The notes: generated from the letters alone by a model not told the origin. A DNA stretch of 64,000 nt from Oscillospiraceae bacterium (GCA_017447645.1 JAFSNA010000095.1:295-64294); one strand, 5' to 3'; shown: positions 1 through 12,814, numbered from the stretch's first letter. Program-made: numbers and translations.

Positions 1-1226
1 AGCACGGCGATGTTGTCAACGCTGTTTTCCGTCTTCCGCGTGTCGGGCTGCCCCAGGTATTTCAGCCGGAACAGCTCGTCGATGACGGCCTTCTCCACGT
101 CCTTGCACCAGAAGCGCTCGCTGTCGCAGCTGTCGGCCTTGCCGAAGCGGGCGTTGCTGGATTCTTGGGAGGAATAGCAGACCAGCTTGTGCCCCTTGTC
201 GCCCCATTTCTGATAGCGCATCTTCGCGCCGCACTCGCCGCAGTACACGAGCCCTGAGAGCAAATAGTTGGAGCTGGTGCGGTTGACGCTGCGCCGTTGC
301 AGCTCCTCCTGGGCCTCCTGCCAGGTTTCCAGGGAGATGATGGCCTCATGGTTGCCCTCGTACTCCTCGCCGTTGAAGACGATGCAGCCGGTGAGGGACT
401 TGCGCATCAGAATCTGACGGATCGCCTGGTCGCCGCTGAAATGAAAGCGCTCCGCGATCTTCTGCGGCGGCATTTTCTCTTCGATGTACAGGCGGAAGAT
501 CTCTTTTACGACCTCCGCTTCTTCGGGCACAATCTCCAGCGAAGATGTCTCCTTGTTGTAGCGGTAGCCGAAGGGCGCGTTGCCACCGCCCATCCACTTG
601 CCGGAGGCCACCCGTGCCTGCCGCCCCCGCTTGAGCTTCTCCACGATCTGGTCGCGGTCGAACTCTGCCAGTGTGGCGAAGAGCATCAGCAGGAATTTGC
701 CTTGCGGGTTGTCCTTGTCGATGCGGCAGTAGTTTTCCGCAACGGAGACAAAGTTGATGTCCTCCCGGTTGCGGTTGACGGCGCTGTTCTTGCTGTCCTT
801 TGCCGCGACGATGTAGTCCTGGATAAATTGCAGCGTGCCCAGCAGGGAGCGGCCCAGACGGTCGATCCTCGCCACCACCAGGGAGTTGACGCGGATGTGC
901 GACTTCCCGTTGTTGAAGTCCGTGATCGCGCCCATGATCTCCTGCAGAGCCGGGCGATCCATGTTGGTGCCGGTATAGCCGTCGTCGATGAAGAGCACCA
1001 GGTTCTTGTAGCCGTTGGCCGTGCACCAGCGGACAATATCGGCCTCCTGGATATCCAGTCCGAAGCCCAGATCCGCCTGCCGGTCCGTGGACACGCGGAG
1101 ATAGCCCACGTTGATGAGGAAATTGTCATCCTCGTCCAGCTCCACGGCCTCGTCGATGACGATCTTCATGTTGTGCTTGAGTTCAAGTATGTTTTTCAAG
1201 TGGTAAGTTCTCTCTGTCTTTTTCAT
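1..1226 (-). CDS. Large serine recombinase (N-terminal ~408 aa; C-terminus beyond window start)
   Basis: My own minus-strand translation from ATG 1226 (RBS AAGGAAGGTG) reads MKKTERTYHL...NVGYLRVSTDRQ, the catalytic Ser motif. Further on it reads ...LSGLVYCGECGAKMRYQKWG, a zinc ribbon. Not in the ORF track because it runs off the window. Confidence 0.9.
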   Translation of the reverse strand, partial: MKKTERTYHLKNILELKHNMKIVIDEAVELDEDDNFLINVGYLRVSTDRQADLGFGLDIQEADIVRWCTANGYKNLVLFIDDGYTGTNMDRPALQEIMGAITDFNNGKSHIRVNSLVVARIDRLGRSLLGTLQFIQDYIVAAKDSKNSAVNRNREDINFVSVAENYCRIDKDNPQGKFLLMLFATLAEFDRDQIVEKLKRGRQARVASGKWMGGGNAPFGYRYNKETSSLEIVPEEAEVVKEIFRLYIEEKMPPQKIAERFHFSGDQAIRQILMRKSLTGCIVFNGEEYEGNHEAIISLETWQEAQEELQRRSVNRTSSNYLLSGLVYCGECGAKMRYQKWGDKGHKLVCYSSQESSNARFGKADSCDSERFWCKDVEKAVIDELFRLKYLGQPDTRKTENSVDNIAV

Positions 1227-1320
1227 AAGTACACCTTCCTTGGTTTGTAATATAGCATGATTTTTCTCTGTTCTCAATAGTTTTTCAATTTTACTCGTAA
1301 GAACTGCGAAACGTAGGAGT

Positions 1321-1366
1321 GGCGAAAAACGGTATGGGACTGTGACGGTCTCATACCGTTTTCGCC
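1321..1366. terminator. Bidirectional hairpin between the 104-aa gene and the recombinase gene
   Basis: GGCGAAAAACGGTATGGGAC-tgtgacg-GTCTCATACCGTTTTCGCC. Roughly 19-bp stem with T runs on both strands. Confidence 0.6.
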
Positions 1367-1373
1367 TTTCTGT

Positions 1374-1688
1374 TTACCGCACCGATTCTCTGTGGCGCGG
1401 CCTCTTGGGCGGCGGCATCGCGTCCCGCTGCTTCACCAGCTCCTGATTCCGCTCCAGCTTTTTGAGCAACGAGGGCTTCCCCGCCGCGGGAGGCTCGTCC
1501 GGTTCCTCGTCGAGCTCGTCGGCCAGCGCGTCCAGCTCGGACCTCGTCAGCGGCCGGCGCTCATTGCGCTCATAGATCTCGTTTACGATCCTGTCCACGT
1601 CGGGACAGTTGATCCTGATCTTGTCGTAATCGGACGGGTCGATCAGCTCGTCTCCGAGAAACAGTCTCACTTTAAATTCCATTGCCAA
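1374..1688 (-). CDS. Hypothetical small acidic protein (104 aa) of the element backbone
   Basis: ORF with RBS GGAAAGGAGGGG upstream of the ATG. No recognisable domain. Confidence 0.6.
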   Translation of the reverse strand: MAMEFKVRLFLGDELIDPSDYDKIRINCPDVDRIVNEIYERNERRPLTRSELDALADELDEEPDEPPAAGKPSLLKKLERNQELVKQRDAMPPPKRPRHRESVR

Positions 1689-1775
1689 CCCCTCCTTTCC
1701 TATGGATTGTTGCCGAATCGGGCAAAAAGTAATCCCCCGCCGGGCGGCGAGGGAGAGTTGAAAACCTTATTCTGT

Positions 1776-2759
1776 TCATAAGCTCAGCTCCTTTTTCTTC
1801 TGCGGGTCGGGCAGGCTGCGCAGCAGCTCCGGCGCGTATTGGCTGACCCTGCGGTACAGGTTATAGTAATCTGCCTCCAACTGCTTCGCGGCCAGCCGCT
1901 CGGACATTTTCTTTTCCCCGGCGGCCGCCAGGTCGGCCTTCTCCTTTTCCAGGCGGCTGACCTTACCCTCCAGCGCTTTCTTGTCTTTATCCAGATCCTT
2001 GTAGGCCTTTTCGTAGCCGCTCAGCGTCTCTTTGAACTTGGTCAGCCTGGGGAAGAGCTTTTTCAGCCGCCGCTTGACCTCCTCCATGTTCTTTTTGGCG
2101 TTGAACGCGTTGGTGTCGTCCAGGATCGCCACGACCGCGCGGATCTGCTTGTCCAGGTTTTCGCTCTCCTTGAAAAGCCGCGGCGGGATGTGGGTGCGCC
2201 CGGTAATACTGGCGCTTTTGCCGCGCTCCAGGTCAGGGTACTTCTCCGCCATGTGCTGCCAGAAGCCGTCCTGCCACTCGGTCAGCTTTTTCTTGTTGCC
2301 GACGATCTCCTTGGCACTCAGCCGCCCATCCTTCGTGATCGGGACAAAAGAAACGTGCATATGGGGCGTTTTCTCGTCCATATGCACTACGGCGGATATG
2401 AAGTTTTCCGGGGCGATCCGGCTCTGCAGGAAGCTCAGCGCGTGCTCGAAGTAGGCGCGGACCTCGTCCATCTTCTTGCCCGCGAAGAACTCCGGGCTCG
2501 CGGTGACGAGCGTCTCCACCACCCGGATGCTGTTGGAGCAGACGCGGGGACACTGGCACGCTTTGATCCGGTCCTCTGCCTCCGCGCGGTACTTGTCCTG
2601 CGGCTCGATCAGGTGAATGTTGTCCTTGCTGCGGGTCAGGTCCACGTCGGGATTGCTGGCGTAGGTCTCCTTGGTGCGCTCGTTGTGGGCCTCGATGTTG
2701 CCGATCTCCGGCCCCTTGTACTTGGCGAAGCGGAGAATGCCGTACTGTGCTTTTGCCAT
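1776..2759 (-). CDS. MobV-family relaxase (Mob/Pre plasmid recombination enzyme)
   Basis: N-terminus MAKAQYGILRFAKYK plus the histidine motif VVHMDEKTPHMHVSFVPI. The ATG at 2759 follows RBS GGAAGGAGG and overlaps the upstream stop (TGATG). Confidence 0.85.
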   Translation of the reverse strand: MAKAQYGILRFAKYKGPEIGNIEAHNERTKETYASNPDVDLTRSKDNIHLIEPQDKYRAEAEDRIKACQCPRVCSNSIRVVETLVTASPEFFAGKKMDEVRAYFEHALSFLQSRIAPENFISAVVHMDEKTPHMHVSFVPITKDGRLSAKEIVGNKKKLTEWQDGFWQHMAEKYPDLERGKSASITGRTHIPPRLFKESENLDKQIRAVVAILDDTNAFNAKKNMEEVKRRLKKLFPRLTKFKETLSGYEKAYKDLDKDKKALEGKVSRLEKEKADLAAAGEKKMSERLAAKQLEADYYNLYRRVSQYAPELLRSLPDPQKKKELSL

Positions 2760-2980
2760 CAGCAGCCCTCCTTCCGCTTTTGCCACACAAGGTCGTATCC
2801 GAGCACGTCGGCCAGCTCGACGGCCTCCCGGTAGCGGAGCGAATTGCGGGCGAGCTTGTTGGAGAAGTTGGAGACGGAATCGCTCCAGCCGTAATCGTCG
2901 TGGAGCCGATCCAGCAGCTCCTGCATCGTGAATCCGGCGCGGATGATCTGCGCCTTGATTTCGTTTCTGGTGTTGGTCAT
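2759..2980 (-). CDS. Small HTH-like protein (73 aa), translationally coupled to the relaxase
   Basis: MTNTRNEIKAQIIRAGFTMQELLDRL... at the end of the 146-aa track ORF. Its stop overlaps the relaxase start. Confidence 0.55.
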   Translation of the reverse strand: MTNTRNEIKAQIIRAGFTMQELLDRLHDDYGWSDSVSNFSNKLARNSLRYREAVELADVLGYDLVWQKRKEGC

Positions 2981-3010
2981 AAGTAAATCCTTCTTTCTTT
3001 GAATTTGCAC

Positions 3011-3038
3011 GGACTTGAAATCCTCTGTTCGTTCGTAC
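3011..3038 (-). repeat. Motif copy D (GTACGAACGAACAGAGGATTTCAAGTCC), candidate oriT/RSA-like site
   Basis: Lies between the primase stop and the HTH-relaxase operon. Matches plus-strand copies at 4968-4994 (22/27) and 5199-5220 (19/22). Confidence 0.4.
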
Positions 3039-3039
3039 G

Positions 3040-4335
3040 TCATGGGATCAGCGCGTAGATGCCCATATAGCCCCGGACGCGGCGGCCGTTGACATAGAGA
3101 TTGTTCGTGGGCTCCAGGCGGTATTCCGGCGCAAGCGCGGCCATTTGATCCAGGAAGCTCTTCTTGGCCAGCGGGAAGTAGGCGTTCTCCTCGCACCACA
3201 GGACATACAACTCGTACAGGCGCTGGGAGGTAATGTCATAGTCCGCCTTGTAGCCGATATACCCCTCGGATTTAAGGAACTCCGTCACGTTGTTTCCCTC
3301 GGACACGCTCTCCTTCATATTCTCCCGGCTGCGCTCGCTGAGCGTGAACTTGTAGCCGTTTGCCAGCAGCCGGTGCAGCCCCTCCAGCGCCCAGAGGAAG
3401 ATGCTGTCGATCTCGCCGCACAGCTTTTCGGACAGGAAGGGATCGTCCACCCGGTCGGCGGGCTTGTCCTTCACCGTCAGAATGATCTGCCGGCGGAAGA
3501 AGCCGACGCTGCGGTCATAGCGGGATTTCAGCGCCCCGTTGCCAAAGCCGATGAAGCGAACATACATGGTGCCCTGGTAGCTCTGCTTGCCCTTCTTCTC
3601 CAGATCCATGGGCAACTCCGCCGTGATCAGGGTTTTCAGGATGTTCGTATCCGGCAGCGCCTCCATCTTCATGTCGTCGTCCACCATCAGCAGGCCGTAT
3701 TCCAGATCGGCGCGGGCGAAGGGACTGGTCTCCACCTTGGCGATGCTGCCGCTGTACATATTGATACCCAGCAGCGCCGACAGCACGATCCCCACACGGG
3801 ACTTGCCCTCGCCGCCCTTGCCCACCAGCATCAGCATTTTCTGCGCCTTGGTGCTGGGGATCAGGCAGTAACCCATGAACTCCTGTAGGGTCAAAATGTC
3901 CTCCGGGATCAGCAGATCATTGAGGAAGGTGATCCATTTTGTCGGGAAAGGCGCGTCCGGATCGTAGCGCACCGGCAGCCGATTCAGGCAGAAGTCCTTG
4001 CTTTGCTCAAAGTGTCCGTCCAGGAACAGCGTGCCGTTAGCCACGTGGATGCGGTCGTGGTAGATCGGCAGGGGCGGAGAGAAGCACTCCGAGCGCAGCG
4101 CCTCCAGCAGATTATTGACCTTGTTGGAGACACGGGTGCGTACATAGGGCTTGATCTGCTGATAGATCTCGCTCTTCAATCGACTCTCGTCCGTGACCTT
4201 GCCGTCCTGCGTGAAAAAAGTCTCGTGGATGCAGAGCATCGGGTGTTCCTCGCGAAAGCATTCGCAGAAGCCCACCTCGTCGATCTTTCCGTTCCCGTCA
4301 AGCCAGATCGGCGCGGGCTCAAAAGATGTCGGCAT
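3040..4335 (-). CDS. Phage/plasmid P4-type primase C-terminal / SF3 helicase family protein
   Basis: 431 aa with Walker A LMLVGKGGEGKSR. Architecture resembles D5_N/primase-helicase proteins of mobile elements. Confidence 0.8.
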   Translation of the reverse strand: MPTSFEPAPIWLDGNGKIDEVGFCECFREEHPMLCIHETFFTQDGKVTDESRLKSEIYQQIKPYVRTRVSNKVNNLLEALRSECFSPPLPIYHDRIHVANGTLFLDGHFEQSKDFCLNRLPVRYDPDAPFPTKWITFLNDLLIPEDILTLQEFMGYCLIPSTKAQKMLMLVGKGGEGKSRVGIVLSALLGINMYSGSIAKVETSPFARADLEYGLLMVDDDMKMEALPDTNILKTLITAELPMDLEKKGKQSYQGTMYVRFIGFGNGALKSRYDRSVGFFRRQIILTVKDKPADRVDDPFLSEKLCGEIDSIFLWALEGLHRLLANGYKFTLSERSRENMKESVSEGNNVTEFLKSEGYIGYKADYDITSQRLYELYVLWCEENAYFPLAKKSFLDQMAALAPEYRLEPTNNLYVNGRRVRGYMGIYALIP

Positions 4336-4894
4336 ATTCGATCACCTCCTTTTGCAGCAGCGCCTCGTAGCGATCCAGCACACCGCCTTCGGTCAGATAG
4401 GCGATCTCGTCCTCTTTCTGCTGTGCTGTGCCCCCGGAAAGCAAATCTGCCAGACCTGCGATAAAATCGTACATCTGGCAGTTCTGCGCGTATTCCGTTG
4501 TGATGGGATCGTCCATGCTCTGCGGCGCGGTTCCCCATTTTTGGTGATGAAGCCGGACCTCCAGAGCCAGCAGCACGTCATGGCAGCGCTTGGCCGGATC
4601 GGGCGGCTTGGGCGGGGCAGGCGTGTATGGGAGATCGACTCCGTTCCCGAAGTCTGCGAGCAGCTTTTCCGCCGCTTCCTTCAGCGACAGGTTGAAGTAC
4701 TTCGCCGTGAAGTCGATCACGTCTCCGTCCTCCCCGCAGCCGAAGCAGTGGAAACGCTCGTCCAGCTTCATGCTGGGGTTGTGGTCGTCGTGGAAGGGAC
4801 ACACTGCCATCCCGCGGCTGTTTACCGTCAGCCCATAGTGTTCTGCCGCCTCGCGGGCTGTGACGAGGCCTTTGATTGCTTTGAAATCAATCAT
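4319..4894 (-). CDS. CHC2 zinc-finger (DnaG-type) primase-like protein
   Basis: CPFHDDHNPSMKLDERFHCFGCGEDGDVIDF motif. Overlaps the downstream helicase gene by 17 nt. Confidence 0.8.
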   Translation of the reverse strand: MIDFKAIKGLVTAREAAEHYGLTVNSRGMAVCPFHDDHNPSMKLDERFHCFGCGEDGDVIDFTAKYFNLSLKEAAEKLLADFGNGVDLPYTPAPPKPPDPAKRCHDVLLALEVRLHHQKWGTAPQSMDDPITTEYAQNCQMYDFIAGLADLLSGGTAQQKEDEIAYLTEGGVLDRYEALLQKEVIEYADIF

Positions 4895-4934
4895 CTCTTG
4901 TACCTCCTGTATTCGATTCGGAGGCAGGAAAAGA

Positions 4935-4994
4935 AAAAGACCTGAACTCTTCCGCCCAGGTACGGTAGTACGAATGGACGGATGATTTCAGGTC
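4935..4994 (+). repeat. Hairpin module copy A (GACCTGAA...TTCAGGTC) containing a motif related to D
   Basis: The 5' end AAAAAGACCTGAACTC and 3' end GATGATTTCAGGTC resemble copies B and C. On the minus strand the hairpin is followed by a T run just upstream of the CHC2 gene. Confidence 0.5.
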
Positions 4995-5151
4995 GCTGCG
5001 TTTTTCTGTTCAGTTGTGCGTGTGATCCCTCCTTTCGCGCAGATGGAAGTTTCTTTTCTTTTTCGCTGCCTCCACCCAATTATACGAAAAAATCCCTCAC
5101 GAAAGGCTGAAATCGACACGATTGCAATTTGGCAAGCCGCTCTCGGCGGAG

Positions 5152-5169
5152 AATTGCAGATCTGCAATT
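5152..5169. promoter_or_regulatory. Perfect 18-bp palindrome AATTGCAGATCTGCAATT (candidate operator)
   Basis: Read directly. A related palindromic half-site ATTGCAAT sits at 5121-5128. Confidence 0.45.
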
Positions 5170-5178
5170 TTGGGCACA

Positions 5179-5221
5179 AAAAAGACCCGGAGTCACCGGT
5201 ACGAACGTACAGATGATTCCG
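5179..5221 (+). repeat. Module copy B, left flank of the PRTase-DprA-phosphoesterase cassette
   Basis: AAAAAGACCCGGAGTCACC ... GATGATTCCG. The first 19-mer is 18/19 identical to 8035-8053, and the terminal 10-mer is identical to 8073-8082. Confidence 0.6.
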
Positions 5222-5235
5222 TATTGCAAGCCGTG

Positions 5236-5264
5236 TTGCCATTAAACAAATCCTGGTGTATTAT
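5236..5264 (+). promoter_or_regulatory. Candidate sigma-70 promoter (TTGCCA-17-TATTAT) at the start of the AT-rich cassette
   Basis: Hexamers and spacing read directly. TATAAT is also present at 5262-5267. Confidence 0.4.
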
Positions 5265-5316
5265 AATAATAACAACTAAAGAACAGAAAGAAGGGATTAT
5301 CAAGAACTTCTTCAGT

Positions 5317-5571
5317 ATGACAGGTGAGCTTTATGATGATCAAAATCTTTTCCAAATCAAGTTCCCTGACCAACTTTGGACAAACATCAGAGTCTTTGTC
5401 CGCAATTTCAGGGACCTGCCACTATGGAAGGACCGGACAATGGCGTCAACTGTATTTGGAGGAAAGCAAGTGAGCGAATACTGGAGCACAGCCTTTCGCA
5501 CAGGAAGAACGCCAGATGGTACTATCGTTTTGTCTAAGCCCATTAACGTCGTTGATATGATCAAGTCATAA
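5317..5571 (+). CDS. Possible small protein (84 aa), uncertain
   Basis: Internal ATG of the 149-aa track ORF. No convincing RBS and no recognisable domain. Confidence 0.25.
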   Translation: MTGELYDDQNLFQIKFPDQLWTNIRVFVRNFRDLPLWKDRTMASTVFGGKQVSEYWSTAFRTGRTPDGTIVLSKPINVVDMIKS

Positions 5572-5639
5572 CCTGGCAATGGACAAGCTCTGCTTTTATG
5601 CTATAATAGATTTGATAAGGTTTTCTTGGAGGTCTCATA

Positions 5640-6230
5640 ATGGCTGTTGAAGTACATCCTATCCAGCTAAACGGGAATTGGGATATCGGCTATGCGTTGG
5701 ATCAGCATGTAATAAGAAGTGTTCATATTGCAGACGATCCGTTCGGTAATCCTGTTTTTGACAACACATACTCTGAAATCGGCGAACTGTTGACCAAATT
5801 CAAGTATAAAGGGCGATATGACAACCTGACAGAAATTGTTTCAACAATCGAAGTGTTTTTACGATCACATCCAGAAATGATGGATTTTGAGACCATTATT
5901 CCTGTTCCACCCACAAAGTTTAGACCTTATCAGCCGACATGGGAAATATGTGAGGCTTTGGCAAAGGATTTAAATCGTTTTTTTATTACTGATGTTCTTG
6001 TAAAGGAATCTGGTGTCGAGTCAAAAGGCTTATCTCTTGAGGAAAAACGCCAGCTCAGTGGTACAATTCGACAGCAACATCGGGCCAAACGGAAGCATAG
6101 TGTTTTGCTCCTTGATGACCTATATAAAACTGGGACAACCTTGACAGAGTGTGTAAGTGTTCTTCGTCGGGATCCTCTGATTGATAAAATCTACGTGCTA
6201 ACGGTCACAAAAACAAAGAACCCGAGTTAA
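5640..6230 (+). CDS. ComF-like phosphoribosyltransferase (PRTase) family protein
   Basis: PRPP-binding loop VLLLDDLYKTGTTLTE. RBS GGAGG 7 nt upstream. Extended -10 TGCTATAAT at 5599-5607. Confidence 0.8.
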   Translation: MAVEVHPIQLNGNWDIGYALDQHVIRSVHIADDPFGNPVFDNTYSEIGELLTKFKYKGRYDNLTEIVSTIEVFLRSHPEMMDFETIIPVPPTKFRPYQPTWEICEALAKDLNRFFITDVLVKESGVESKGLSLEEKRQLSGTIRQQHRAKRKHSVLLLDDLYKTGTTLTECVSVLRRDPLIDKIYVLTVTKTKNPS

Positions 6231-6250
6231 CTCTAGTGGGGAGGTGAAGT

Positions 6251-7189
6251 ATGAAAAACCAGTACCTGTTGCAGCTGATGCTCACCAAAGGAATTGGTGA
6301 TGCTGCGATAAAGAAAATACTTCACTATGCTTTTACGCATCAAGATGTTTCGCTTGAGCTCTTCTGCAAAGAGCCTTTGCAGCTGAATGCGGTGTTGAAT
6401 TGCAAGGAAGAAACCTTGCTAAGCATACTGCAGAATGAAGAGCGCGCGAAAAAGCTTTGTGGTGAAATGTTGGAAAAAGGGATCGCTGTTATTTCTGAAA
6501 TTGATAGCGAGTATCCCGAACATTTGAAAAAGGCGCTCAATGGGCAATGCCCACCTGTGCTTTTTGTGAAGGGGAACTCAGCGTTGCTCTCAACGAAGTC
6601 CGTCGGCTTCTGTGGCTCACGAAAGGTTTCTCCAAAAGGCGTAATGATTACCGGACAGTGCGCTGAGCAGCTGACCGACCGAGGAATCACAGTTGTCAGC
6701 GGGTATGCTGCAGGAACAGACTTGGCCGCGCATAGCGCAGCTTTAGCGCATGGCGGCAACACTGTGTTCGTTTTGGCGGAAGGTCTTTTGAAGAACACAG
6801 AGAAAGTCGAGATTCGGGATCTGCTCACAGAAGAGAACCACGTTTTTGTTTCTCAATTCCTTCCGGCACAGACATGGAACGTCGGGAATGCCATGCGGCG
6901 GAATGCTGTTATTATCGGGCTTTCAAGCGCAATGATCCTGGTCGAGTCAGGAAAAACTGGTGGAACATTTGCGGCAGGCGAGGAATCATTGAAACGGGGA
7001 ACTCCGTTGTTCGTGATCGACTATGAGAAGCCTGAGGTCTCTGCGGAGGCAAATCCGTACTTCATCGAAAAAGGCGGAATGCCTATCCGAGGGAAGAAGG
7101 GCGTCCCAAACCTTGAGAAAGTCTTTCGTGCTATAGACGAATCAGGCCAAACGCCTCCTTGTTCCGAGCAGTTGATGCTTGACTTATGA
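6251..7189 (+). CDS. DprA/Smf-like (SLOG-superfamily Rossmann) protein
   Basis: VGFCGSRKVSPKG...VVSGYAAGTDLAAHSAALAHGGNTVFVLAEGL...MRRNAVIIGLS...VESGKTGGTFAAG matches the remembered DprA core pattern. RBS GGGGAGGTG upstream. Confidence 0.8.
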   Translation: MKNQYLLQLMLTKGIGDAAIKKILHYAFTHQDVSLELFCKEPLQLNAVLNCKEETLLSILQNEERAKKLCGEMLEKGIAVISEIDSEYPEHLKKALNGQCPPVLFVKGNSALLSTKSVGFCGSRKVSPKGVMITGQCAEQLTDRGITVVSGYAAGTDLAAHSAALAHGGNTVFVLAEGLLKNTEKVEIRDLLTEENHVFVSQFLPAQTWNVGNAMRRNAVIIGLSSAMILVESGKTGGTFAAGEESLKRGTPLFVIDYEKPEVSAEANPYFIEKGGMPIRGKKGVPNLEKVFRAIDESGQTPPCSEQLMLDL

Positions 7190-8034
7190 AGATTTACGTC
7201 ACAGCTGACGTTCACGGCTTTTACACTGAATTTCATAATGCGCTGGATGAGGCGGGGTATTTCATCGATCCAGATCCGCACAAGCTAATTATTCTGGGCG
7301 ATATCTTCGACCGCGGTACAGAGGCAGTCGAGATGCAGCAGTTCATCTTGGAGCTCATGGAGCAGAACGCTGTCATTCTGATACGCGGGAATCATGAAGA
7401 TCTCTTCGCGGAAATGATTACGATCGACGAGGGCCTGCCTGTCCGGCATCATGTGAGCAATGGCACCTACGGTACGGCGCTGCAGCTGACCGGCTACGAT
7501 CCGACGCTGGCGCAGATCCGGCATTGGGATTTCGCCGAGAAAGCGCGGGAGACACCGTATTATCAGCGCATCATCCCCGCGACAATTGATTGGTACGAGA
7601 CGGCGCATTACATCTTCACCCATGGCTGGATCCCCTGCATCCGCGGATGGGACGGCAGCTACAGTTATGATCCCGACTGGCGCGACACCGGGCCGGAGGG
7701 CTGGCGGATGGCGCGTTGGTATAATGGGATGGACGCCGCGCAGAGCTGCACGGAAGAGAAAACGATCCTCTGCGGGCACTGGCACAGCTCCTACGGCCAC
7801 AGCAAGTATGAGGGCAAGGGCTCGGAGTTCGGCCCCGACGCCGATTTCAGCCCGTACTACGGCCCCGGCGTTATCGCGCTGGACGCCTGCACCACGCACA
7901 GCGGGAAAGTCAATGTGATCGTGATAGAAGATGATGACCTTCCCGATCAAGACGCAGAGGACGAGCGTTTCCGCGAGGTAACGCAGCGCATCCTCGAGGA
8001 GCACAAAGCAGCTTTCGTGGAGTTGGCAAAATAG
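7186..8034 (+). CDS. Calcineurin-like metallophosphoesterase (PPP/ApaH-like)
   Basis: Motifs DVHG, GDIFDRG, GNHED and CGHWHSS. The start ATG overlaps the DprA-like stop (ATGA). Confidence 0.85.
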   Translation: MKIYVTADVHGFYTEFHNALDEAGYFIDPDPHKLIILGDIFDRGTEAVEMQQFILELMEQNAVILIRGNHEDLFAEMITIDEGLPVRHHVSNGTYGTALQLTGYDPTLAQIRHWDFAEKARETPYYQRIIPATIDWYETAHYIFTHGWIPCIRGWDGSYSYDPDWRDTGPEGWRMARWYNGMDAAQSCTEEKTILCGHWHSSYGHSKYEGKGSEFGPDADFSPYYGPGVIALDACTTHSGKVNVIVIEDDDLPDQDAEDERFREVTQRILEEHKAAFVELAK

Positions 8035-8085
8035 AAAAAGACCCGGAATCACCGCATCAGTTTGATGACATCGATGATTCCGGGT
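8035..8085. terminator. Module copy C: bidirectional terminator hairpin, right flank of the cassette
   Basis: ACCCGGAATCA (8041-8051) pairs with TGATTCCGGGT (8075-8085), with an A run before and a T run after. Its ends repeat copy B. Confidence 0.7.
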
Positions 8086-8094
8086 TTTCTGTTA

Positions 8095-8958
8095 TTATGC
8101 GCCAATCAGATTCTGCGTAATCTGATCGAAGAAATCCTTCCCCCACACAGCAAGCTTGTTTGGATCCTTGATAAACGGCAAGACGTCCTGCTTTGCCTGC
8201 TCATAGTCGATCGTTGCAAAACGTGCGTGAAGAAGCTCTTTCAGTTGCCCAATATCCAATGGAGCGTCTGTGTCGAGAAATTCGGATTGCCGGAGGCGAG
8301 CTTCCAGGTGCTTCAGATTGACCGGTGTATTCATTGAGAGATAGAACACATAGTCATAGAGATCGCGGCCCTTGATGCGATTTTTCCAAGCACGGCAAAG
8401 AACAGCATGTATTTTCCCTGCAAACAGAGAAGGCGCATCATACAGGCAGATCTCATAGGGGCTGGGCAGCAGCCGATACCTATGCTCAAAGGTTGCAAAG
8501 GGCGGCGGATTTGTGTCGATCTCGAATTTGATTTTGATCAGTTCGCTCGGCGCGATGGACTGAGCAAGACGATCATCCGCGTAGAACAGCAGGATGTGCT
8601 CCTTTGTGTTCCCCTTCAGAAAGGCAGATTGGATAGCGGATTCCGCCGTCTTTACACGCCCTTCAGCTTTGAAGTTCAGCCCGTAGGATCGGATCTCCTT
8701 TTCCAGCACCGGAAGATACTCGCCCAGGTCAAAACCCTCCGGCGCCATCAGCGAAAAGTCAAGATCCTCCGAGAAACGATCCAGGCCATAGAAAATCCGC
8801 AGCGCCGTTCCGCCGTAGAAGGCTACGTGCTTGAAAAAACCGGCACGGCTCAGCCCGCAAAGCACGATCTCCTGAATGATCTCCTTGATGGCATTCTTCT
8901 TGTCGGCCGAAGTCTGTGGCTCATAGGCGCGCAGCATCTGCTCAAGTACTTGTTGCAT
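8095..8958 (-). CDS. abiEii: AbiEii/AbiGii-family nucleotidyltransferase toxin
   Basis: FYGGTALRIFYGLDRFSEDLDFSL motif. The likely start MQQVLEQ at 8958 overlaps the upstream gene end. Confidence 0.8.
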   Translation of the reverse strand: MQQVLEQMLRAYEPQTSADKKNAIKEIIQEIVLCGLSRAGFFKHVAFYGGTALRIFYGLDRFSEDLDFSLMAPEGFDLGEYLPVLEKEIRSYGLNFKAEGRVKTAESAIQSAFLKGNTKEHILLFYADDRLAQSIAPSELIKIKFEIDTNPPPFATFEHRYRLLPSPYEICLYDAPSLFAGKIHAVLCRAWKNRIKGRDLYDYVFYLSMNTPVNLKHLEARLRQSEFLDTDAPLDIGQLKELLHARFATIDYEQAKQDVLPFIKDPNKLAVWGKDFFDQITQNLIGA

Positions 8959-9544
8959 GATGGGTCTCCTTTCTGATCCAGGATCGCAGCAGCTTGTGGT
9001 TCTTCGTCTGGTACAGCGCGGCAAGCTGTTCCATCTCTGCGAGGTCAAGCCCTAAGAGCGTTTGACGGTCGATTCGCAGATTTTCAAACAGCAGCTGCTC
9101 CAGCTCCCTTCGATTTGCACAAGGCGAGAGCTTATACAACTCGTCACAGAGCGCCTTTTCCGGCGCGGCCAAGCGATAGCTGTATCCGTTCTCGACCATC
9201 GGCAGGACACCGTAGGGGAAAGCAGATTCCGGCACGTCCCGATAACTGAAGACGCCGAAGGGCGTTTCAAACTGCTTGGCCCTCTTCTTGTCAAAGCTTG
9301 CCGACGTGAATTGATGGACAGCTTCCGGGATCAGGCCATGGTGGGCAAGGGCGTATTCAAAAGACAGATAGGACGGGCCGTAAATACTCGCTGCAAGAAG
9401 ATAGCCCGGTGTATGGGGATCGGTCTCATACAACCCGCGCACGACGCGGGTCAATTCGCCGTTCTTTACCATGCTCGTAATCTTCATTGCAGGATTTCTA
9501 TAGCCATTCAGTTCATCCATAAGGACAAGATGCGTTTTTAGCAT
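8942..9544 (-). CDS. abiEi: AbiEi-family antitoxin / transcriptional regulator
   Basis: MLKTHLVLMDELNGYRNPAMKITSMVKNGELTRVVRGLYE... N-terminal wHTH pattern. RBS GGTGGTG. Overlaps abiEii by 17 nt. Confidence 0.75.
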   Translation of the reverse strand: MLKTHLVLMDELNGYRNPAMKITSMVKNGELTRVVRGLYETDPHTPGYLLAASIYGPSYLSFEYALAHHGLIPEAVHQFTSASFDKKRAKQFETPFGVFSYRDVPESAFPYGVLPMVENGYSYRLAAPEKALCDELYKLSPCANRRELEQLLFENLRIDRQTLLGLDLAEMEQLAALYQTKNHKLLRSWIRKETHHATST

Positions 9545-9563
9545 ATTTTCACCACCAGTTACA

Positions 9564-9592
9564 ATATTACTGTAATTGCTGGCAAAAATCAA
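9564..9592 (-). promoter_or_regulatory. Candidate abiE promoter (TTGATT-17-TAATAT) with overlapping imperfect inverted repeat
   Basis: Hexamers read on the minus strand. TTACA-n7-TGTAA and CCAG...CTGG lie at 9555-9582. Confidence 0.45.
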
Positions 9593-9655
9593 GCGGTTTT
9601 TGCGATTCAATTCATTCTCTTTGGGAGAGCTTCTATGTTTTCAAATAGTCTATTG

Positions 9656-9664
9656 TGATATAAT
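9656..9664 (+). promoter_or_regulatory. Extended -10 element TGATATAAT upstream of the 112-aa gene
   Basis: Read directly. No strong -35. Confidence 0.35.
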
Positions 9665-9719
9665 GGTCAACACAGAGGTTGAAAAGAATAGCATTGCTCA
9701 GCGAGAGGAGGTGAAGGGC

Positions 9720-10058
9720 ATGAGCAAGTATTCAGACGACGATATTCGTGAAATGAACCGGGTTACCATTCAAGCCGCGGCACAGTATCTTGGCATATCT
9801 GCAGCAGCGGTTACCATGGGCATGAGGAACGCATTGCTCCCAATTGGTTTTGCTGTCAAAAACGAAGAAAACCGATATTCAGATTCCTGGCATTACGTCA
9901 TTGTTCCCGAAAGACTTATTGCTTACAAGCACGGGCGAATTAATGAAATCCAAGTTAAGAACATAGAAGACAGTCTAACGACAATCGTAAAAAGTTTTGA
10001 GGAAATGAAGCACGACCTGCTTTTTCTATTAAAAGAAAACGAGGGATCGGAGGGATAA
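9720..10058 (+). CDS. Hypothetical small protein (112 aa), possible HTH
   Basis: Internal ATG preceded by GAGAGGAGGTGAAGGGC. Contains VTIQAAAQYLGISAAAVTMGMRN, a helix-turn-helix-like segment. Confidence 0.5.
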   Translation: MSKYSDDDIREMNRVTIQAAAQYLGISAAAVTMGMRNALLPIGFAVKNEENRYSDSWHYVIVPERLIAYKHGRINEIQVKNIEDSLTTIVKSFEEMKHDLLFLLKENEGSEG

Positions 10059-10111
10059 AAGTATTTGACAGCCTGTTCCAGCAAGAAGAAAAGAAGGAGG
10101 AGGTGAAAGAA

Positions 10112-11626
10112 GTGGGCGGAAAAACCGTAAGTCGGCAGGAGTTATACGATGAAATATGGACTATTTCAGCAAGTAAGGCAGCCGAGAAATATGAGATAAG
10201 CTACGCAAGGTTTCTGAAAATCTGCAGAGAGAACAGCATTCCAATCCCGCCTTCCGGCTATTGGACAAAGCTGCAATGCGGAAAGCCTGTTGAAAAGACA
10301 CCTTTGCCAGCGTCAAAAATAGATGTTGTTGTGCTTGACCCTGAAAAAGGGAAACCAAAAGAAACAGACGAAATCATAGCACAGCAGGCAGTCATCGTCC
10401 CTGATGAGGAAAAAATCGGGCTGGAGATCCGATATGAAGGCCAAACGCAAAGGTACAATCGGGAGACCTTATACCAGGAAGTATGGGAAGAGCCTATGAC
10501 GGTCGTCAGCAAGCGATATGGAATGTCTGATAATGGGCTCAGAAAAATCTGTCGTAAGCTTGATGTTCCGTTCCCTCCGGCTGGATATTGGGCAAAAGTG
10601 CGTGCTGGGAAGTCAGTATCAAAGCCTGCGCTCCCGAAAGTGAAAACACCACCTAACGAAGATAAACCCAAGACAGGAGAGCGCCGAAAACTACATGTTG
10701 AAGAAACTGCACTTTCGTTCTTAAAGGAAGAGGACCGCAGGAAAATCGTAGATGCTGCAAGTAAGCTGCGCGTTGCCGGACCTGGTGCCAAGCTGCATAA
10801 GGATATTGCCAGCCAGAAGGAAAAATGCGAAAGCTGGCTGGAACGGCAAAAAGAGCGTGGTCAAAGGTATGGCCGATATGTCGAGGAAGTGCCGGTTCTT
10901 GCCGCAGACATCTCAAAAGAGAGCTACGGTCGGGCCTTCCACATACTGGATGCTTTGCTGAAAGGCATGCTGCCCTTTGGCGCTTCTGTAACATACCAAT
11001 TCCATTTTCAGGTGAACGGCGAAGATGTTCCCTTTTCCATGTCGGAATCAAAGGATCAGATTCCTCACACGGTTACGCAAGAGGAAAAGCTGGCTTTGCT
11101 TAAATATGAAGAAGCAAAGAGAAAGAATTCTTGGGCATCAAAGCCCAATATCCCCAAATGGGAGCATCCATGGAACGGAAGACTGACGCTGACCATTAAC
11201 GGAAAATACAAATTCATGGACTGCAAATCCTATTCTCTCGAAGATCGAATCGGCGAAATCATGATCGCTTTCTATGAAGCCTCCTATGCTGTGCGGCTGC
11301 AGAGACTGGAAGCGGAAGAAAAGAGGCGCAAAGAAGAAGAGGAGCGCAGAAAGGCGGAGGAGATTCGCGCGAGATACAACAAGGAAATCGATTATACGGG
11401 AGGGCTGATCAACGCAGCAGAAGACTATGATACTGCATGCAAGCTCCGCGCCTATATCGCTGCGGTAAAGGCCTCTGGTCAGAAATCGGAAGACTGGATC
11501 GAATGGGCGAACGCGAAAGCGGATTGGTTTGATCCAACCATTCATGCAGAAGATCCATATTTTGGCGTAAGGCAGCATGCCAAGAGCGCAGACAGCAAAA
11601 TGCCAAAGCGGAAAGGATACTGGTAA
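10112..11626 (+). CDS. Hypothetical protein with two N-terminal HTH-like repeats and a coiled-coil-like EK-rich segment
   Basis: GTG at 10112 (or 10103) after AAGGAGGAGG. Repeats are ELYDEIW...LKICRENSIPIPPSGYWTKL and TLYQEVW...LRKICRKLDVPFPPAGYWAKV. Confidence 0.7.
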   Translation: MGGKTVSRQELYDEIWTISASKAAEKYEISYARFLKICRENSIPIPPSGYWTKLQCGKPVEKTPLPASKIDVVVLDPEKGKPKETDEIIAQQAVIVPDEEKIGLEIRYEGQTQRYNRETLYQEVWEEPMTVVSKRYGMSDNGLRKICRKLDVPFPPAGYWAKVRAGKSVSKPALPKVKTPPNEDKPKTGERRKLHVEETALSFLKEEDRRKIVDAASKLRVAGPGAKLHKDIASQKEKCESWLERQKERGQRYGRYVEEVPVLAADISKESYGRAFHILDALLKGMLPFGASVTYQFHFQVNGEDVPFSMSESKDQIPHTVTQEEKLALLKYEEAKRKNSWASKPNIPKWEHPWNGRLTLTINGKYKFMDCKSYSLEDRIGEIMIAFYEASYAVRLQRLEAEEKRRKEEEERRKAEEIRARYNKEIDYTGGLINAAEDYDTACKLRAYIAAVKASGQKSEDWIEWANAKADWFDPTIHAEDPYFGVRQHAKSADSKMPKRKGYW

Positions 11627-11665
11627 AGCTTTTGGTTCAGCATTCAAAAGCAGCAAAATGGTGCA

Positions 11666-11712
11666 GTTAAGAGGGCAACTTTTGCAAAAATGCAAAAAGT
11701 TACCCCCTTAAC
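11666..11712. repeat. Long imperfect palindrome downstream of the 505-aa gene
   Basis: GTTAAGAGGGCAACTTTTGCA-aaaa-TGCAAAAAGTTACCCCCTTAAC. Confidence 0.5.
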
Positions 11713-11784
11713 TCGATATTTTCATGTTGCGGCTAATGCTATACACATCGGCAAAAAATCAAAAAAATGCCGAAATGTATTTTG

Positions 11785-11816
11785 CTGAATTTGAATTCAG
11801 TGAATTTGGATTCAGT
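11785..11816 (+). repeat. Tandem 15-nt repeat GAATTTG(A/G)ATTCAGT x2
   Basis: CTGAATTTGAATTCAGTGAATTTGGATTCAGT read directly. Confidence 0.5.
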
Positions 11817-11830
11817 AAAAAGCGGTGGTT

Positions 11831-11847
11831 GCTCTCCAATCCGATAG
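11831..11847. repeat. Copy of the sigG junction core (GCTCTCCAATCCGATAG)
   Basis: Compare GCTTTTCTCCATCCGATAA at 12441-12459. AATCCGAT also recurs at 11861-11868 and 11891-11898. Confidence 0.45.
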
Positions 11848-11858
11848 ATTTCGGGTTT

Positions 11859-12422
11859 TCAATCCGATGAATTTTCGCCCTCGAAGTTATAATCCGATAT
11901 GACTCTCACCTTCAACTGCGGCGGGCTGTCCGGCACGGCGCGGTTGTTATAGATGGGGAGGCCAAGCTTCTCCAGCAGGATGCGCCAGCGGCGGGTGTGG
12001 TTGTACTTGGCGATGGCGAACCAGCCGCGGGAGGGATGGGCGCGGCGGGCGTTGTAGTCCTCGGCGCTGGTCGGCTGGATGCGCAGGTACTCCTTGATGA
12101 AGTCTTCGGTGGCCTTGGCCTGGACCTCATCGAGGGGCATTTTCTTTGTCGGGTAGTGCTGCTCCAGCCACTCCTGCAGCGTGATGCCGAAGCGGCGCTT
12201 GATGACCGTGTGCGGCGGGAGGCCGCGCTTCTTGAAATCACTGGTGGTCGGCACCCGACCGTGGTCGAGGATGAACTGCTCCACGGCGTCGAAGATCGCT
12301 TCTTCCGACCAGCTGAAAAAAGGCAGTTCCCCGGACAGCGTATGTAAGATCCCTGCGGCCTCGGTCTGGCCGGCCGCGTTCAGTGCTTCGATGGCGGCGC
12401 TCAGCGCCTGCTTGCGTGTCAT
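11859..12422 (-). CDS. Element-encoded hypothetical protein (187 aa), possible DNA-binding repeat protein
   Basis: Only the C-terminal part of the 544-aa track ORF is plausible. ATG 12422 follows AGGAGG 9 nt upstream. Two degenerate W/F..G..P....F repeats recall homing-endonuclease-associated repeats. Confidence 0.6.
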   Translation of the reverse strand: MTRKQALSAAIEALNAAGQTEAAGILHTLSGELPFFSWSEEAIFDAVEQFILDHGRVPTTSDFKKRGLPPHTVIKRRFGITLQEWLEQHYPTKKMPLDEVQAKATEDFIKEYLRIQPTSAEDYNARRAHPSRGWFAIAKYNHTRRWRILLEKLGLPIYNNRAVPDSPPQLKVRVISDYNFEGENSSD

Positions 12423-12427
12423 AGAGA

Positions 12428-12748
12428 TCAGCCTCCTGTGGCTTTTCTCCATCCGATAATCGCTGGAACGCCGTAGGTGGAGAACTGCACCTGCTGGCCC
12501 AGGTCGAAGGCATCCACCGCCTTGATCAGGCCGATCACGCCGACCTGGAAGAGGTCGTCCATGCTTTCGCCGCGGCCGGAGAAACGCTGCACCACGCTCA
12601 GCACCAGGCGCAGATTGCCCTCGATCAGCTTCTGCCGCGCCTGCATGTCGCCGCCGCGCGCTTTTTCGAGCAGCATTTTGGTCTCCGCGCTCTTCAGAAC
12701 CGGCAGCTCCGCGGTGTTCACCCCGCAGATCTCGACCTTTCCCTGCAT
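12428..12748 (-). pseudogene. sigG: 5' fragment of a sporulation sigma factor G-like gene, interrupted after codon 99
   Basis: MQGKVEICGVNTAELPVLK...GNLRLVLSVVQRF...DDLFQVGVIGLIKAVDAFD...FSTYGVPAIIG parallels B. subtilis SigG up to ...STYAVPMIIG. It then reads WRKATGG-stop instead of EIRRYLRD. Confidence 0.8.
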
Positions 12749-12784
12749 GAACATCCCCCACTTTCGGAAAAGAGAAAGTGGAGT

Positions 12785-12814
12785 TAGTATTTCCCGCCGC
12801 GGGAAAAATCATAC
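12785..12814 (-). promoter_or_regulatory. Forespore-type (sigma-F/G-like) promoter candidate GTATG-N18-AATACTA
   Basis: Read on the minus strand about 40 nt upstream of the sigG start. Resembles the remembered sigma-G consensus GHATR-N18-CATXHTA. Confidence 0.45.

Follow-up and report, generated by a model that had tools for sequence, protein, structure and literature searches.

A mobilizable element splits the forespore sigma factor gene sigG and belongs to a recombinase family that apparently targets a single site

We analyzed a 64,000-nt stretch of DNA from an Oscillospiraceae bacterium (GCA_017447645.1, JAFSNA010000095.1:295-64294; the window) and found that the sporulation sigma factor gene sigG is interrupted by a mobile element of 12,867 bp that encodes a large serine recombinase (LSR). 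SigG is forespore-specific in B. subtilis and C. difficile. We regard the anatomy of this insertion and its site-specificity as close to certain, and comparison with relatives points to one large LSR family whose bacterial attachment site (attB) is a single codon pair of sigG.

On the minus strand of the window, an open reading frame (ORF) at 12754..12428 encodes 108 aa from its first ATG (106 aa in the calls of public assemblies), which comprise the first 95 codons of SigG and a short element-encoded tail. Residues 3-101 of this ORF align to positions 2-100 of the 258 positions of the NCBIfam SigG equivalog NF006071 (E 5e-45; 154 bits, below the model's cut-off of 372), compared with 98 bits for the SigF, 75 bits for the SigK and 64 bits for the SigE models. 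The same residues are 63 % identical to B. subtilis SigG, a reference sequence that served as probe only. These matches confirm an earlier reading of the window from its sequence alone (the sequence-only reading), which had identified the ORF as the start of SigG. The product was also tested as a possible full-length member of the family, which it is not, as it covers only the first 100 of the 258 profile positions. The truncation noted in the sequence-only reading stands, but its position does not: the host/element junction lies four codons earlier, after Val94-Pro95, and the residues AIIG, which had been read as SigG, are encoded by element DNA in an arm of the type found in the element's own attachment site (attP) that mimics the MIAG of the host. 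Arms of attP often resemble attB.

12465..12748, minus strand: 5' part of sigG, codons 1-94 and the CC of Pro95; the called ORF continues into the element to a stop at 12430..12428
12785..12814, minus strand: sigG promoter-like motif GTATG-N15-GGAAATACTA, 36 nt upstream of the start codon

The window ends inside the recombinase gene. Using an exact-protein look-up with the element's primase, we obtained a 29.7-kb metagenome contig from ENA (L001), which overlaps the window across 14,335 nt with 5 mismatches (99.97 % identity) and extends 7 kb beyond it. The complete LSR in L001 is 525 aa, and approximately 50 nt past its stop codon lies a 163-aa ORF with sigma regions 3 and 4 that starts MIAGELRRFLRD. 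The 3' half of sigG (regions 2.4-4.2), which the sequence-only reading had proposed to look for at the recombinase end, adjoins that end in both L001 and a second contig, L002. Across the two junctions (...TACGGCGTTCC/AGCGATTATCGGATGGAGA and TCTCCATCCGATAATCGTTCC/GATGATCGCC..., with the slash at the junction), the host halves share the core CGTTCC, and joining them at this core yields a 777-nt in-frame gene with a 258-aa product, which upholds the claim that a mobile element splits sigG. The composite protein matches positions 3-257 of NF006071 at 386.5 bits, above the cut-off. It scored 278 bits against the SigF model, below that model's cut-off of 321, and 378 bits against TIGR02850, under the stricter cut-off of 457 that TIGR02850 applies.

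1..1226, minus strand: LSR, first 408 of 525 codons; the window edge cuts the gene
L001 14336-15231, 0.1-0.9 kb beyond the window start: remainder of the LSR, attR and the sigG 3' half
12465..12470, minus strand: core CGTTCC of attL, also present in attR; inferred crossover dinucleotide CC at 12466-12465
12446..12462, minus strand: 17-nt terminal inverted repeat CGATTATCGGATGGAGA (attP-type arm), with a perfect partner TCTCCATCCGATAATCG at the other element end, outside the window
attL junction sequence: ...TACGGCGTTCCAGCGATTATCGG
attR junction sequence: CCGATAATCGTTCCGATGATCGCC
attB junction sequence: TACGGCGTTCCGATGATCGCC
attP junction sequence: CCGATAATCGTTCCAGCGATTATCGG

Because the halves join exactly at CGTTCC, the real host/element junction is after Val94-Pro95. 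The crossover falls at the CC of the Pro95 codon, within the conserved Tyr-Gly-Val-Pro-Met-Ile stretch of sigma region 2.4. Alignment of the two junctions, another proposal of the sequence-only reading, gave the core flanked by inverted arms, and the CC is the dyad centre of the reconstructed attP, which reads TT[CC]AG here and GTCATT[CC]AATGAC in the relative L030. This centre is the position expected for the 2-bp staggered cut of a serine recombinase, and excision at the CC would restore sigG exactly. The window by itself, which holds only the truncated 5' fragment, could suggest a decayed sigG paralogue or an assembly chimera beside an unrelated mobile element. That explanation retains almost no probability, given that the opposite end of the element adjoins the 3' half, that independent assemblies from several samples agree and that the same break point recurs in dozens of species; it is refuted by the exact in-frame join together with an intact junction that is identical over 51 nt.

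This intact junction was found in a sister lineage. The closest intact SigG (P0122, 258 aa, locus L097) is 95 % identical, and the junction DNA of its locus is identical to the composite, i.e., the predicted attB, over those 51 nt. Six downstream genes are common to the split and intact loci and encode two alpha/beta-hydrolases, two zinc-ribbon proteins, a FakA-like kinase and an MFS transporter. When the two lineages are compared, sigG shows a nonsynonymous divergence (dN) of 0.031 and a synonymous divergence (dS) of 0.245, and its dN is below that of five of six flanking genes (0.05-0.21) and on par with that of the sixth, an 83-aa ORF (0.027). The split allele, with the same 106-aa product, was present on 12 contigs, which come from several samples and do not differ in host context; carriers of the allele include the ENA entries ERZ28655079, ERZ28654336 and ERZ28019071 and the samples SRR12529030, SRR12529036 and SRR12529043. 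The exact composite SigG protein was absent from a collection of 15 billion proteins, and the two findings together indicate that the integrated state is the norm in the host species. An NCBI metagenome-assembled genome (MAG) annotates the two halves as separate 'sigma-70 family' proteins, and therefore the presence or absence of sigG may be misscored.

A split gene would matter little if a second intact sigG, or a sigF/G-like sigma factor borne by an element or phage, were present elsewhere in the genome, and phage-encoded homologues of sigF and sigG are known (cited in PMC13492144). We consider such redundancy improbable: neither a second sigG-like sequence nor the 3' half was found in the 64-kb window (tblastn returned the 5' fragment only), the element carries no such sequence either, and synteny identifies the split locus as orthologous to the one intact sigG that the sister lineage has. 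Furthermore, sigG is normally single-copy, and a full sigG stood beside the element in none of the 72 informative loci of the genome scan described next.

The LSR contains Resolvase (PF00239), Recombinase (PF07508) and Zn_ribbon_recom (PF13408) domains, all above cut-off, and its catalytic serine motif RVSTDRQ includes residues R44-V45-S46-T47-D48 and Q50 that are invariant in 24 relatives. Clusters of LSR homologues number in the hundreds. Scanning one genome per species with an alignment of 24 LSR homologues gave 369 relatives, for which the best 80 loci were fetched; 72 of these had enough flank to be informative. A fragment of sigG was present at the element edge in 68 of the 72. A same-strand 3' half followed the LSR, as in the window, at 51 loci; the LSR stood tail-to-tail with the 5' half, which indicates an inverted element, at 13; the 5' half preceded the LSR at three (Roseburia and Agathobacter); and one case was odd. 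This pattern extends to LSRs that are just 33-35 % identical to the one described here, and the carriers include the isolate Oscillibacter sp. GMB15532 (L073) and the complete chromosome OY763424.2 (L075). The attachment site occupies the same sigG position in many Oscillospiraceae, Acutalibacteraceae, Lachnospiraceae and relatives, with all junctions in GTN-CCN-ATG-AT (Val-Pro-Met-Ile) and with element arms that are inverted repeats. Three components recur in relatives, namely a terminal protein with HNH repeats, a small ORF upstream of the LSR, and the LSR itself. One relative with a 58 %-identical LSR is un-integrated (L031, 9998-12190 of the 130-kb contig CALCUH010000010.1): its LSR is followed by an intact attP, TTTCGACTTCCAAATATCGTTCCCATGATATGCGAAAGTCGAAA, whose core mimics sigG (GTTCCCATGAT), and then by the terminal gene, with no sigG nearby.

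The LSRs are under strong purifying selection (dN/dS ~0.05). In each of three groups, the dS of the recombinase was lower than that of the adjoining sigG half (0.25 vs 0.68, 0.25 vs 0.57, and 0.38 vs a saturated value), and therefore the elements move between species. All 29 of the 29 sigG 3' halves that were checked are open to the natural stop. Vertical co-divergence as proof of maintained function was rejected, as the recombinase dS was below the host dS in three of three groups.

The arrangement of genes at the two element ends bears on how excision might be controlled.

11859..12422, minus strand: terminal element gene, 187 aa, with two HNH-associated repeats (Pfam PF18780) and no nuclease domain
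1374..1688, minus strand: small ORF (MEFKVRLFLG...), directly upstream of the recombinase
1249..1277 (L001 13059-13087), minus strand: recombinase promoter TTGAGA-17 nt-TATATT with a TG extension (extended -10), vegetative sigmaA type, 10 of 12 matches

The terminal gene has its own ribosome-binding site (RBS), AGGAGG, and its start lies 42 nt past the junction. From the sigG promoter region to the end of this gene (L001 1400-2700), neither a sigma70-type promoter nor a same-strand terminator was found, and thus in this orientation the gene would be transcribed only from the sigG promoter. The motif GTATG-N15-GGAAATACTA is one that we take to be of the forespore sigmaF/sigmaG type, on the basis of the sigmaF-type consensus, GYATA-N15-GGnnAnAHTR. 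The strict forespore-type pattern was present in 17 of 72 sigG upstream regions, compared with 0.08 % of shuffles, and near-matches were present in most of the others, including that of the intact locus L097; the split alleles keep the motif. When the terminal protein was used to search metagenome contigs, 80 loci were recovered (rumen, termite gut, fermenters); the gene lies 30-40 nt behind a same-strand sigG 5' fragment in 55 of them and adjoins an antisense sigG 3' half in 14. A gene without a promoter behind the sigG fragment suggests that excision could be triggered from the sigG promoter and makes the terminal gene a candidate excision or directionality factor. In the sequence, this placement is the sole apparent tie between the element and sporulation, and inverted elements lack it.

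A hairpin with a T-run precedes the LSR promoter, and equivalents of this sigmaA-type promoter were found in 17 of 18 upstream regions examined, more distant relatives included. The N-terminal ~45 residues of the small ORF are kept at the same position down to an LSR identity of ~46 % and also in the 61 %-identical relative L084 (tblastn across loci), and the ORF had no match in the NCBIfam and PHROG family searches; it is a second candidate for a directionality or regulatory factor. In 25 relatives, the 170 nt that precede the small ORF showed a single conserved feature, a GTCAATAAT-like box, which to our knowledge fits no known sigma consensus.

These features would fit the following sequence of events. 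While the element is integrated, sigG would give no functional sigma factor, and the insertion would be costless in growth, since only the developing spore uses sigG. The LSR would be made continuously from its vegetative-type promoter; recombination between attL and attR requires more than an LSR by itself. Once the sigG promoter becomes active in the forespore, read-through would transcribe the terminal gene, and the terminal product, or that of the small ORF upstream of the LSR, would supply the directionality function, such that the element would excise when sigG is first transcribed and sigG would be restored. Since excision would occur in the forespore, on the inherited chromosome, the element could persist only as a circle followed by re-integration: the circle would stay in the non-dividing forespore, the element also having a primase module, and would re-integrate after germination once the sigG promoter is silent. 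The genetics of B. subtilis and Clostridium indicate that a cell entering sporulation without sigG dies with its element, and therefore both partners would gain from timely excision. Sporulation-coupled excision, on the pattern of SPbeta, is the model that we prefer for elements in this orientation, at about even odds, and we judge re-integration to be more doubtful. The full scenario, in which these would be the first developmentally excised elements of the 'germ line', with sigmaF-fired read-through from the sigG promoter, LSR-mediated excision, a circle within the dormant spore and post-germination re-integration across hundreds of Clostridia of gut, rumen and termite gut, appears unlikely.

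Several observations weigh against developmental excision. Exact or near-exact searches for the attP pattern gave 0 matches in metagenome contigs, where no excision product was found, and a locus in the attP state was found with the terminal protein in 0 of 80 metagenome loci and, in the genome scan, only once (L031). The element is inverted in ~20 % of relatives (13 of 68 genome loci and 14 of 80 metagenome loci), where the sigG promoter cannot drive the terminal gene, and thus promoter capture is not universal. The terminal protein matched no NCBIfam, PHROG or PADLOC family and in Pfam matched HNH_repeat only, and it showed neither fold nor family link to any known directionality factor: its AlphaFold model is all-helical (pLDDT 76), and the best match of this model in the PDB had an E of 1.2, which is not significant and renders its sigma-factor matches meaningless. 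No recognised sporulation-type promoter was found upstream of the small ORF or the LSR. About 30 of the 41 host ORFs in the window were scanned and were all housekeeping or metabolic, with no other recognisable sporulation gene, a result that is uninformative on whether the host sporulates. The elements are also younger than their hosts, and the intact halves may reflect recent arrival rather than kept function; given recent transfer, the intactness of sigG halves alone is no proof that the split gene is still used. Finally, Oscillibacter, a carrier genus that includes the isolate above, is described as non-spore-forming (preprint 10.1101/2022.02.25.481979).

This last point and several of the others would be expected if sigG were simply a safe harbour, targeted as a conserved site in a gene that is dispensable in growth and with no developmental programme attached. 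Carriers would then be sporulation-defective until the element leaves through transfer or stochastic excision, and the insertions may be one cause of asporogeny in Clostridia of the gut and rumen. We regard this explanation as the main rival and assign it a substantial though minority share of the probability. Horizontal spread is dominant, with LSRs of 94-98 % identity found across at least 10 species that have sigG halves of 70-85 % identity and with a recombinase dS below that of the host; the LSR promoter is of the vegetative type; both orientations occur; the MobV relaxase and primase give the element reasons of its own to excise; and LSRs converge on conditionally dispensable genes, e.g., competence genes (PMC10083194). 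Weighing against a safe harbour are the selection for timely excision that would arise when a sporulating cell lacking sigG dies with its element, a split allele that is apparently the sole allele of its species in 12 contigs, the intactness of all sigG halves and promoters examined, and a promoterless terminal gene 30-40 nt behind the sigG fragment in ~80 % of cases.

The compartment in which its target gene is used sets this element apart from those already described. The interrupted genes described to date are sigK, spsM, spoVFB, spoVR, gerE and yabG, all of which are mother-cell genes, as the sequence-only reading had stated (PMC4191935, PMC5595907, PMC6957869, PMC10747680, PMC13492144), and the persistence of such elements is explained by mother-cell-restricted excision, in which the rearranged chromosome is discarded and the spore keeps the element (PMC4191935, PMC6957869). 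A 2026 review names only sigK and spsM under sporulation (PMC13492144), and in the LSR survey by Durrant et al. the targets singled out are competence genes and a Mg-chelatase rather than sigG (PMC10083194). No report of an interrupted sigG was found in the literature examined, with subscription-only papers outside it, and the statement in PMC6957869 that 'almost all' are mother-cell genes leaves room for an unlisted exception. Like the intervening elements, the insertion in sigG interrupts a sporulation ORF that rejoins intact (the 258-aa composite and the L097 junction), and it features an edge recombinase, whose stop lies ~50 nt from attR, with a short core and inverted repeats. Its target, however, is SigG by equivalog score, with a forespore-type promoter motif, and, going by B. 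subtilis and C. difficile, would be a forespore rather than a mother-cell gene. Judged from these features, the sigG insertion departs from the mother-cell-gene rule and otherwise resembles skin-type elements in layout.

The closest parallel is skin, which in B. subtilis, C. difficile and others also splits a sporulation sigma gene with a precise in-frame junction; skin-type elements span 2.6-48 kb. The likeness to a skin/SpoIVCA-type layout that the sequence-only reading had noted was borne out, with the LSR at the edge and immediately upstream of the C-terminal sigma-gene fragment, as is usual for skin (preprint 10.1101/2022.02.25.481979). The two differ in that the target of skin is sigK, from which it is excised only in the terminally differentiated mother cell while the spore keeps the element, whereas here the target is the forespore gene sigG and the inherited chromosome would need repair; in addition, spoIVCA has a sporulation promoter, whereas the LSR here has one of the sigmaA type. 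A skin-like function of the sigG element would be an argument by analogy.

Phage SPbeta, which interrupts spsM, provides a model for the proposed control, in that the integrase SprA is constitutive and the sporulation-controlled directionality factor SprB times excision (PMC4191935), a logic that may also apply here. SPbeta likewise has inverted repeats around a short core (PMC4191935, PMC5499854). In contrast, sprB has its own mother-cell promoter, whereas the candidate factor gene here is promoterless and would borrow that of the interrupted gene; SPbeta is a phage, whereas this is a MobV mobilizable element; and the LSR is only distantly related to SprA (PDB 9dxh, E 5e-7 over ~70 residues). 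The gin element in gerE of B. cereus ATCC 10987 is, like the one here, non-phage, uses serine recombinases and occupies a small sporulation regulator gene (PMC5595907), but gerE is mother-cell specific and gin has three recombinases, compared with one LSR family here. Behaviour of the kind that an element in a germ-line gene would need is known as reversible active lysogeny: Listeria phi10403S in comK and SpyCIM1 in mutL excise, restore the gene, exist as episomes and re-integrate (PMC13492144). Neither of these is linked to sporulation, and for the sigG element re-integration is hypothesised only.

The best NCBIfam match of the LSR was XisF, which excises the fdxN element of Anabaena developmentally in heterocysts, again a terminally differentiated cell; the score of 98.8 bits is far from the NF041201 cut-off of 375, the target and organism differ, and the LSR is thus not an XisF. 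An LSR together with a Mob/Pre (MobV) relaxase is found on other small non-conjugative elements of Firmicutes, namely Tn4451/Tn4453 (TnpX with TnpZ) and streptococcal integrative mobilizable elements with serine integrases, and the element here shares this combination. Enzymes of the TnpX/TndX type differ in using many sites and in usually carrying DUF4368 (PMC10083194), whereas the LSR here has one conserved target and, in Pfam, no match to this domain of the multi-target clade.

A large, old and widespread LSR family specialised for sigG breaks the rule that explains persistence through the mother cell. If excision occurs in the forespore, the germ line would be rearranged reversibly and the elements would act as a self-resetting recombinase switch of natural origin. 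If they are instead knock-outs, they would constitute common, transmissible sporulation knock-outs, with a bearing on non-sporulating gut Clostridia that have full sporulation gene sets, on between-host transmission of gut anaerobes and on MAG annotation. In either case, the family offers dozens of natural sets of LSR, attP and attB with one common crossover dinucleotide.

The split gene might also act through its fragments, either as a two-piece sigma factor or through SigG(1-95), often in fused form, binding core RNA polymerase and modulating forespore transcription. Many relatives encode in-frame fusions of region 2 with the terminal protein (289-295 aa; P0279-P0360; L036 7527-8432), which carry the database label 'sigma-70 family', and the 3' half begins with the native Met96 codon. 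We nevertheless consider this explanation very improbable, even more so than a redundant sigG copy, as the break lies inside region 2.4, in the -10 recognition helix, the tail past the junction varies among elements, and no RBS was seen before the 3' half. A selected chimera of SigG(1-95) and the terminal protein was rejected: fusions occur at 22 %, which is about the chance expectation from frame and stop codons, and they cluster in one lineage at 71-74 % identity. One fusion cluster (P0305) has 99 member sequences, and the fusion chimera keeps the core-binding region 2 of the sigma factor, which could matter.

Additional features lie near attR. Between the LSR stop and the attP-type arm, 30-60 nt after the stop, lies a hairpin with its own version in each subgroup (e.g., CCTGAAATC-CGAC-GATTTCAGG; L001, L013-L017, L041-L054), which could serve either as an insulating terminator for the att site or as an accessory site for the recombinase. 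The last LSR codons contain a match to a sigma70-like promoter, TTGAAA-16-AATAAT (L001 14661-14688, 0.3 kb beyond the window start); it faces outward over attR to the sigG 3' half and in the circle would face the terminal gene. This match is not conserved in the 80 %-identity group.

The relatives vary in size and content. Elements range from ~3.6 kb (L036), 4.7 kb (L030) and 6.7 kb (L079) to a contig of at least 62 kb. L084 (IMG/VR UViG_3300032167_000130, 62.6 kb, listed as viral) has a 61 %-identical LSR at its contig end; the 11.6 kb examined encode a ribonucleotide reductase, thymidylate synthase, guanylate kinase, transposase and HNH endonuclease and end in a sigG 3' half. Elements that target sigG may therefore in some cases be large, perhaps SPbeta-like, prophages. 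A human-faecal record labelled 'Bacteriophage sp.' contains the same junction between LSR and sigG 3' half. Among cultured phages and plasmids, no relative of the LSR exceeded 34 % identity, and IMG/VR gave the one at 61 %. In L079 (3000-9700), from the 33 % LSR branch, a BlaI/BlaR1-like regulator pair, a glycosyltransferase and a Thr/Ser-rich repeat protein replace the HNH-repeat gene, and therefore cargo and accessory genes are not common to the whole LSR family. The MAG that contains L031 is binned as Bacteroidales, and its contig is perhaps a plasmid, a phage, a larger element or mis-binned. Exceptions to the usual layout were also observed: in L070 (~11383-11640) the usual arm and ATCCC run into DNA other than sigG, pointing to a deletion or second insertion; in L076 and L027 a sigG fragment is not within reach; and in L064 the LSR converges on the end of the sigG 3' half.

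Read along the sigG strand, the element contains attL, the 187-aa terminal protein, a 507-aa protein, a 160-aa ORF, AbiEi/AbiEii, a metallophosphatase, a Shosta/PsyrTA-like pair, primase genes, a 73-aa ORF, MobV, the small ORF, the LSR and attR.

10103..11626, plus strand: 507-aa cargo protein, with a weak, sub-threshold RWP-RK-like match as its sole family match
9576..10058, plus strand: 160-aa cargo ORF, PHROG 6058 (unknown function)
8095..9610, minus strand: AbiEi (9610..8942) and AbiEii (9048..8095), an abortive-infection / toxin-antitoxin pair (PADLOC AbiEi E 5e-66, AbiEii E 1e-105; Pfam AbiEii)
7186-8034, plus strand: metallophosphatase, which follows the Shosta/PsyrTA-like pair
5640-6230 (phosphoribosyltransferase (PRTase)-like) and 6251-7189 (DprA-like), plus strand: Shosta/PsyrTA-like defence pair (PADLOC PsyrA E 2e-63, ShosA E 2e-43, PsyrT E 2e-9; Pfam)
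4894..4319, minus strand: DnaG-type zinc-ribbon protein (NCBIfam TIGR01391)
4335..3040, minus strand: P4-family primase/helicase (NCBIfam TIGR01613, 108.5 bits vs a cut-off of 108.7)
2980..2759, minus strand: 73-aa ORF, from gene calls in L001
2786/2759..1776, minus strand: MobV relaxase (NCBIfam MobV, 161.9 bits, cut-off 100)

The genes to the left of the sigG ORF had been called mobile-element backbone in the sequence-only reading, in agreement with the LSR, the MobV relaxase and the P4-type primase with its DnaG zinc-ribbon protein found here. With an integrase and a relaxase, other genes for a primase, defence systems and proteins of unknown function, and no conjugation apparatus, the element has the composition of an integrative mobilizable element. 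The cargo block at 5-12 kb has a G+C content of 42-51 % in six of seven 1-kb windows and of 56 % at 7-8 kb, compared with 55-60 % for the element backbone and ~58-71 % for host DNA, and the low-G+C defence block looks like separately acquired cargo. Within it, the two anti-phage systems (Shosta/PsyrTA-like and AbiEi/AbiEii) stand side by side at 5640-9610, and the 507-aa cargo protein contains an internally duplicated segment of ~60 residues (…EIWTISASKAAEKYEISYARFLKICRENSIPIPPSGYW… / …EVWEEPMTVVSKRYGMSDNGLRKICRKLDVPFPPAGYW…).

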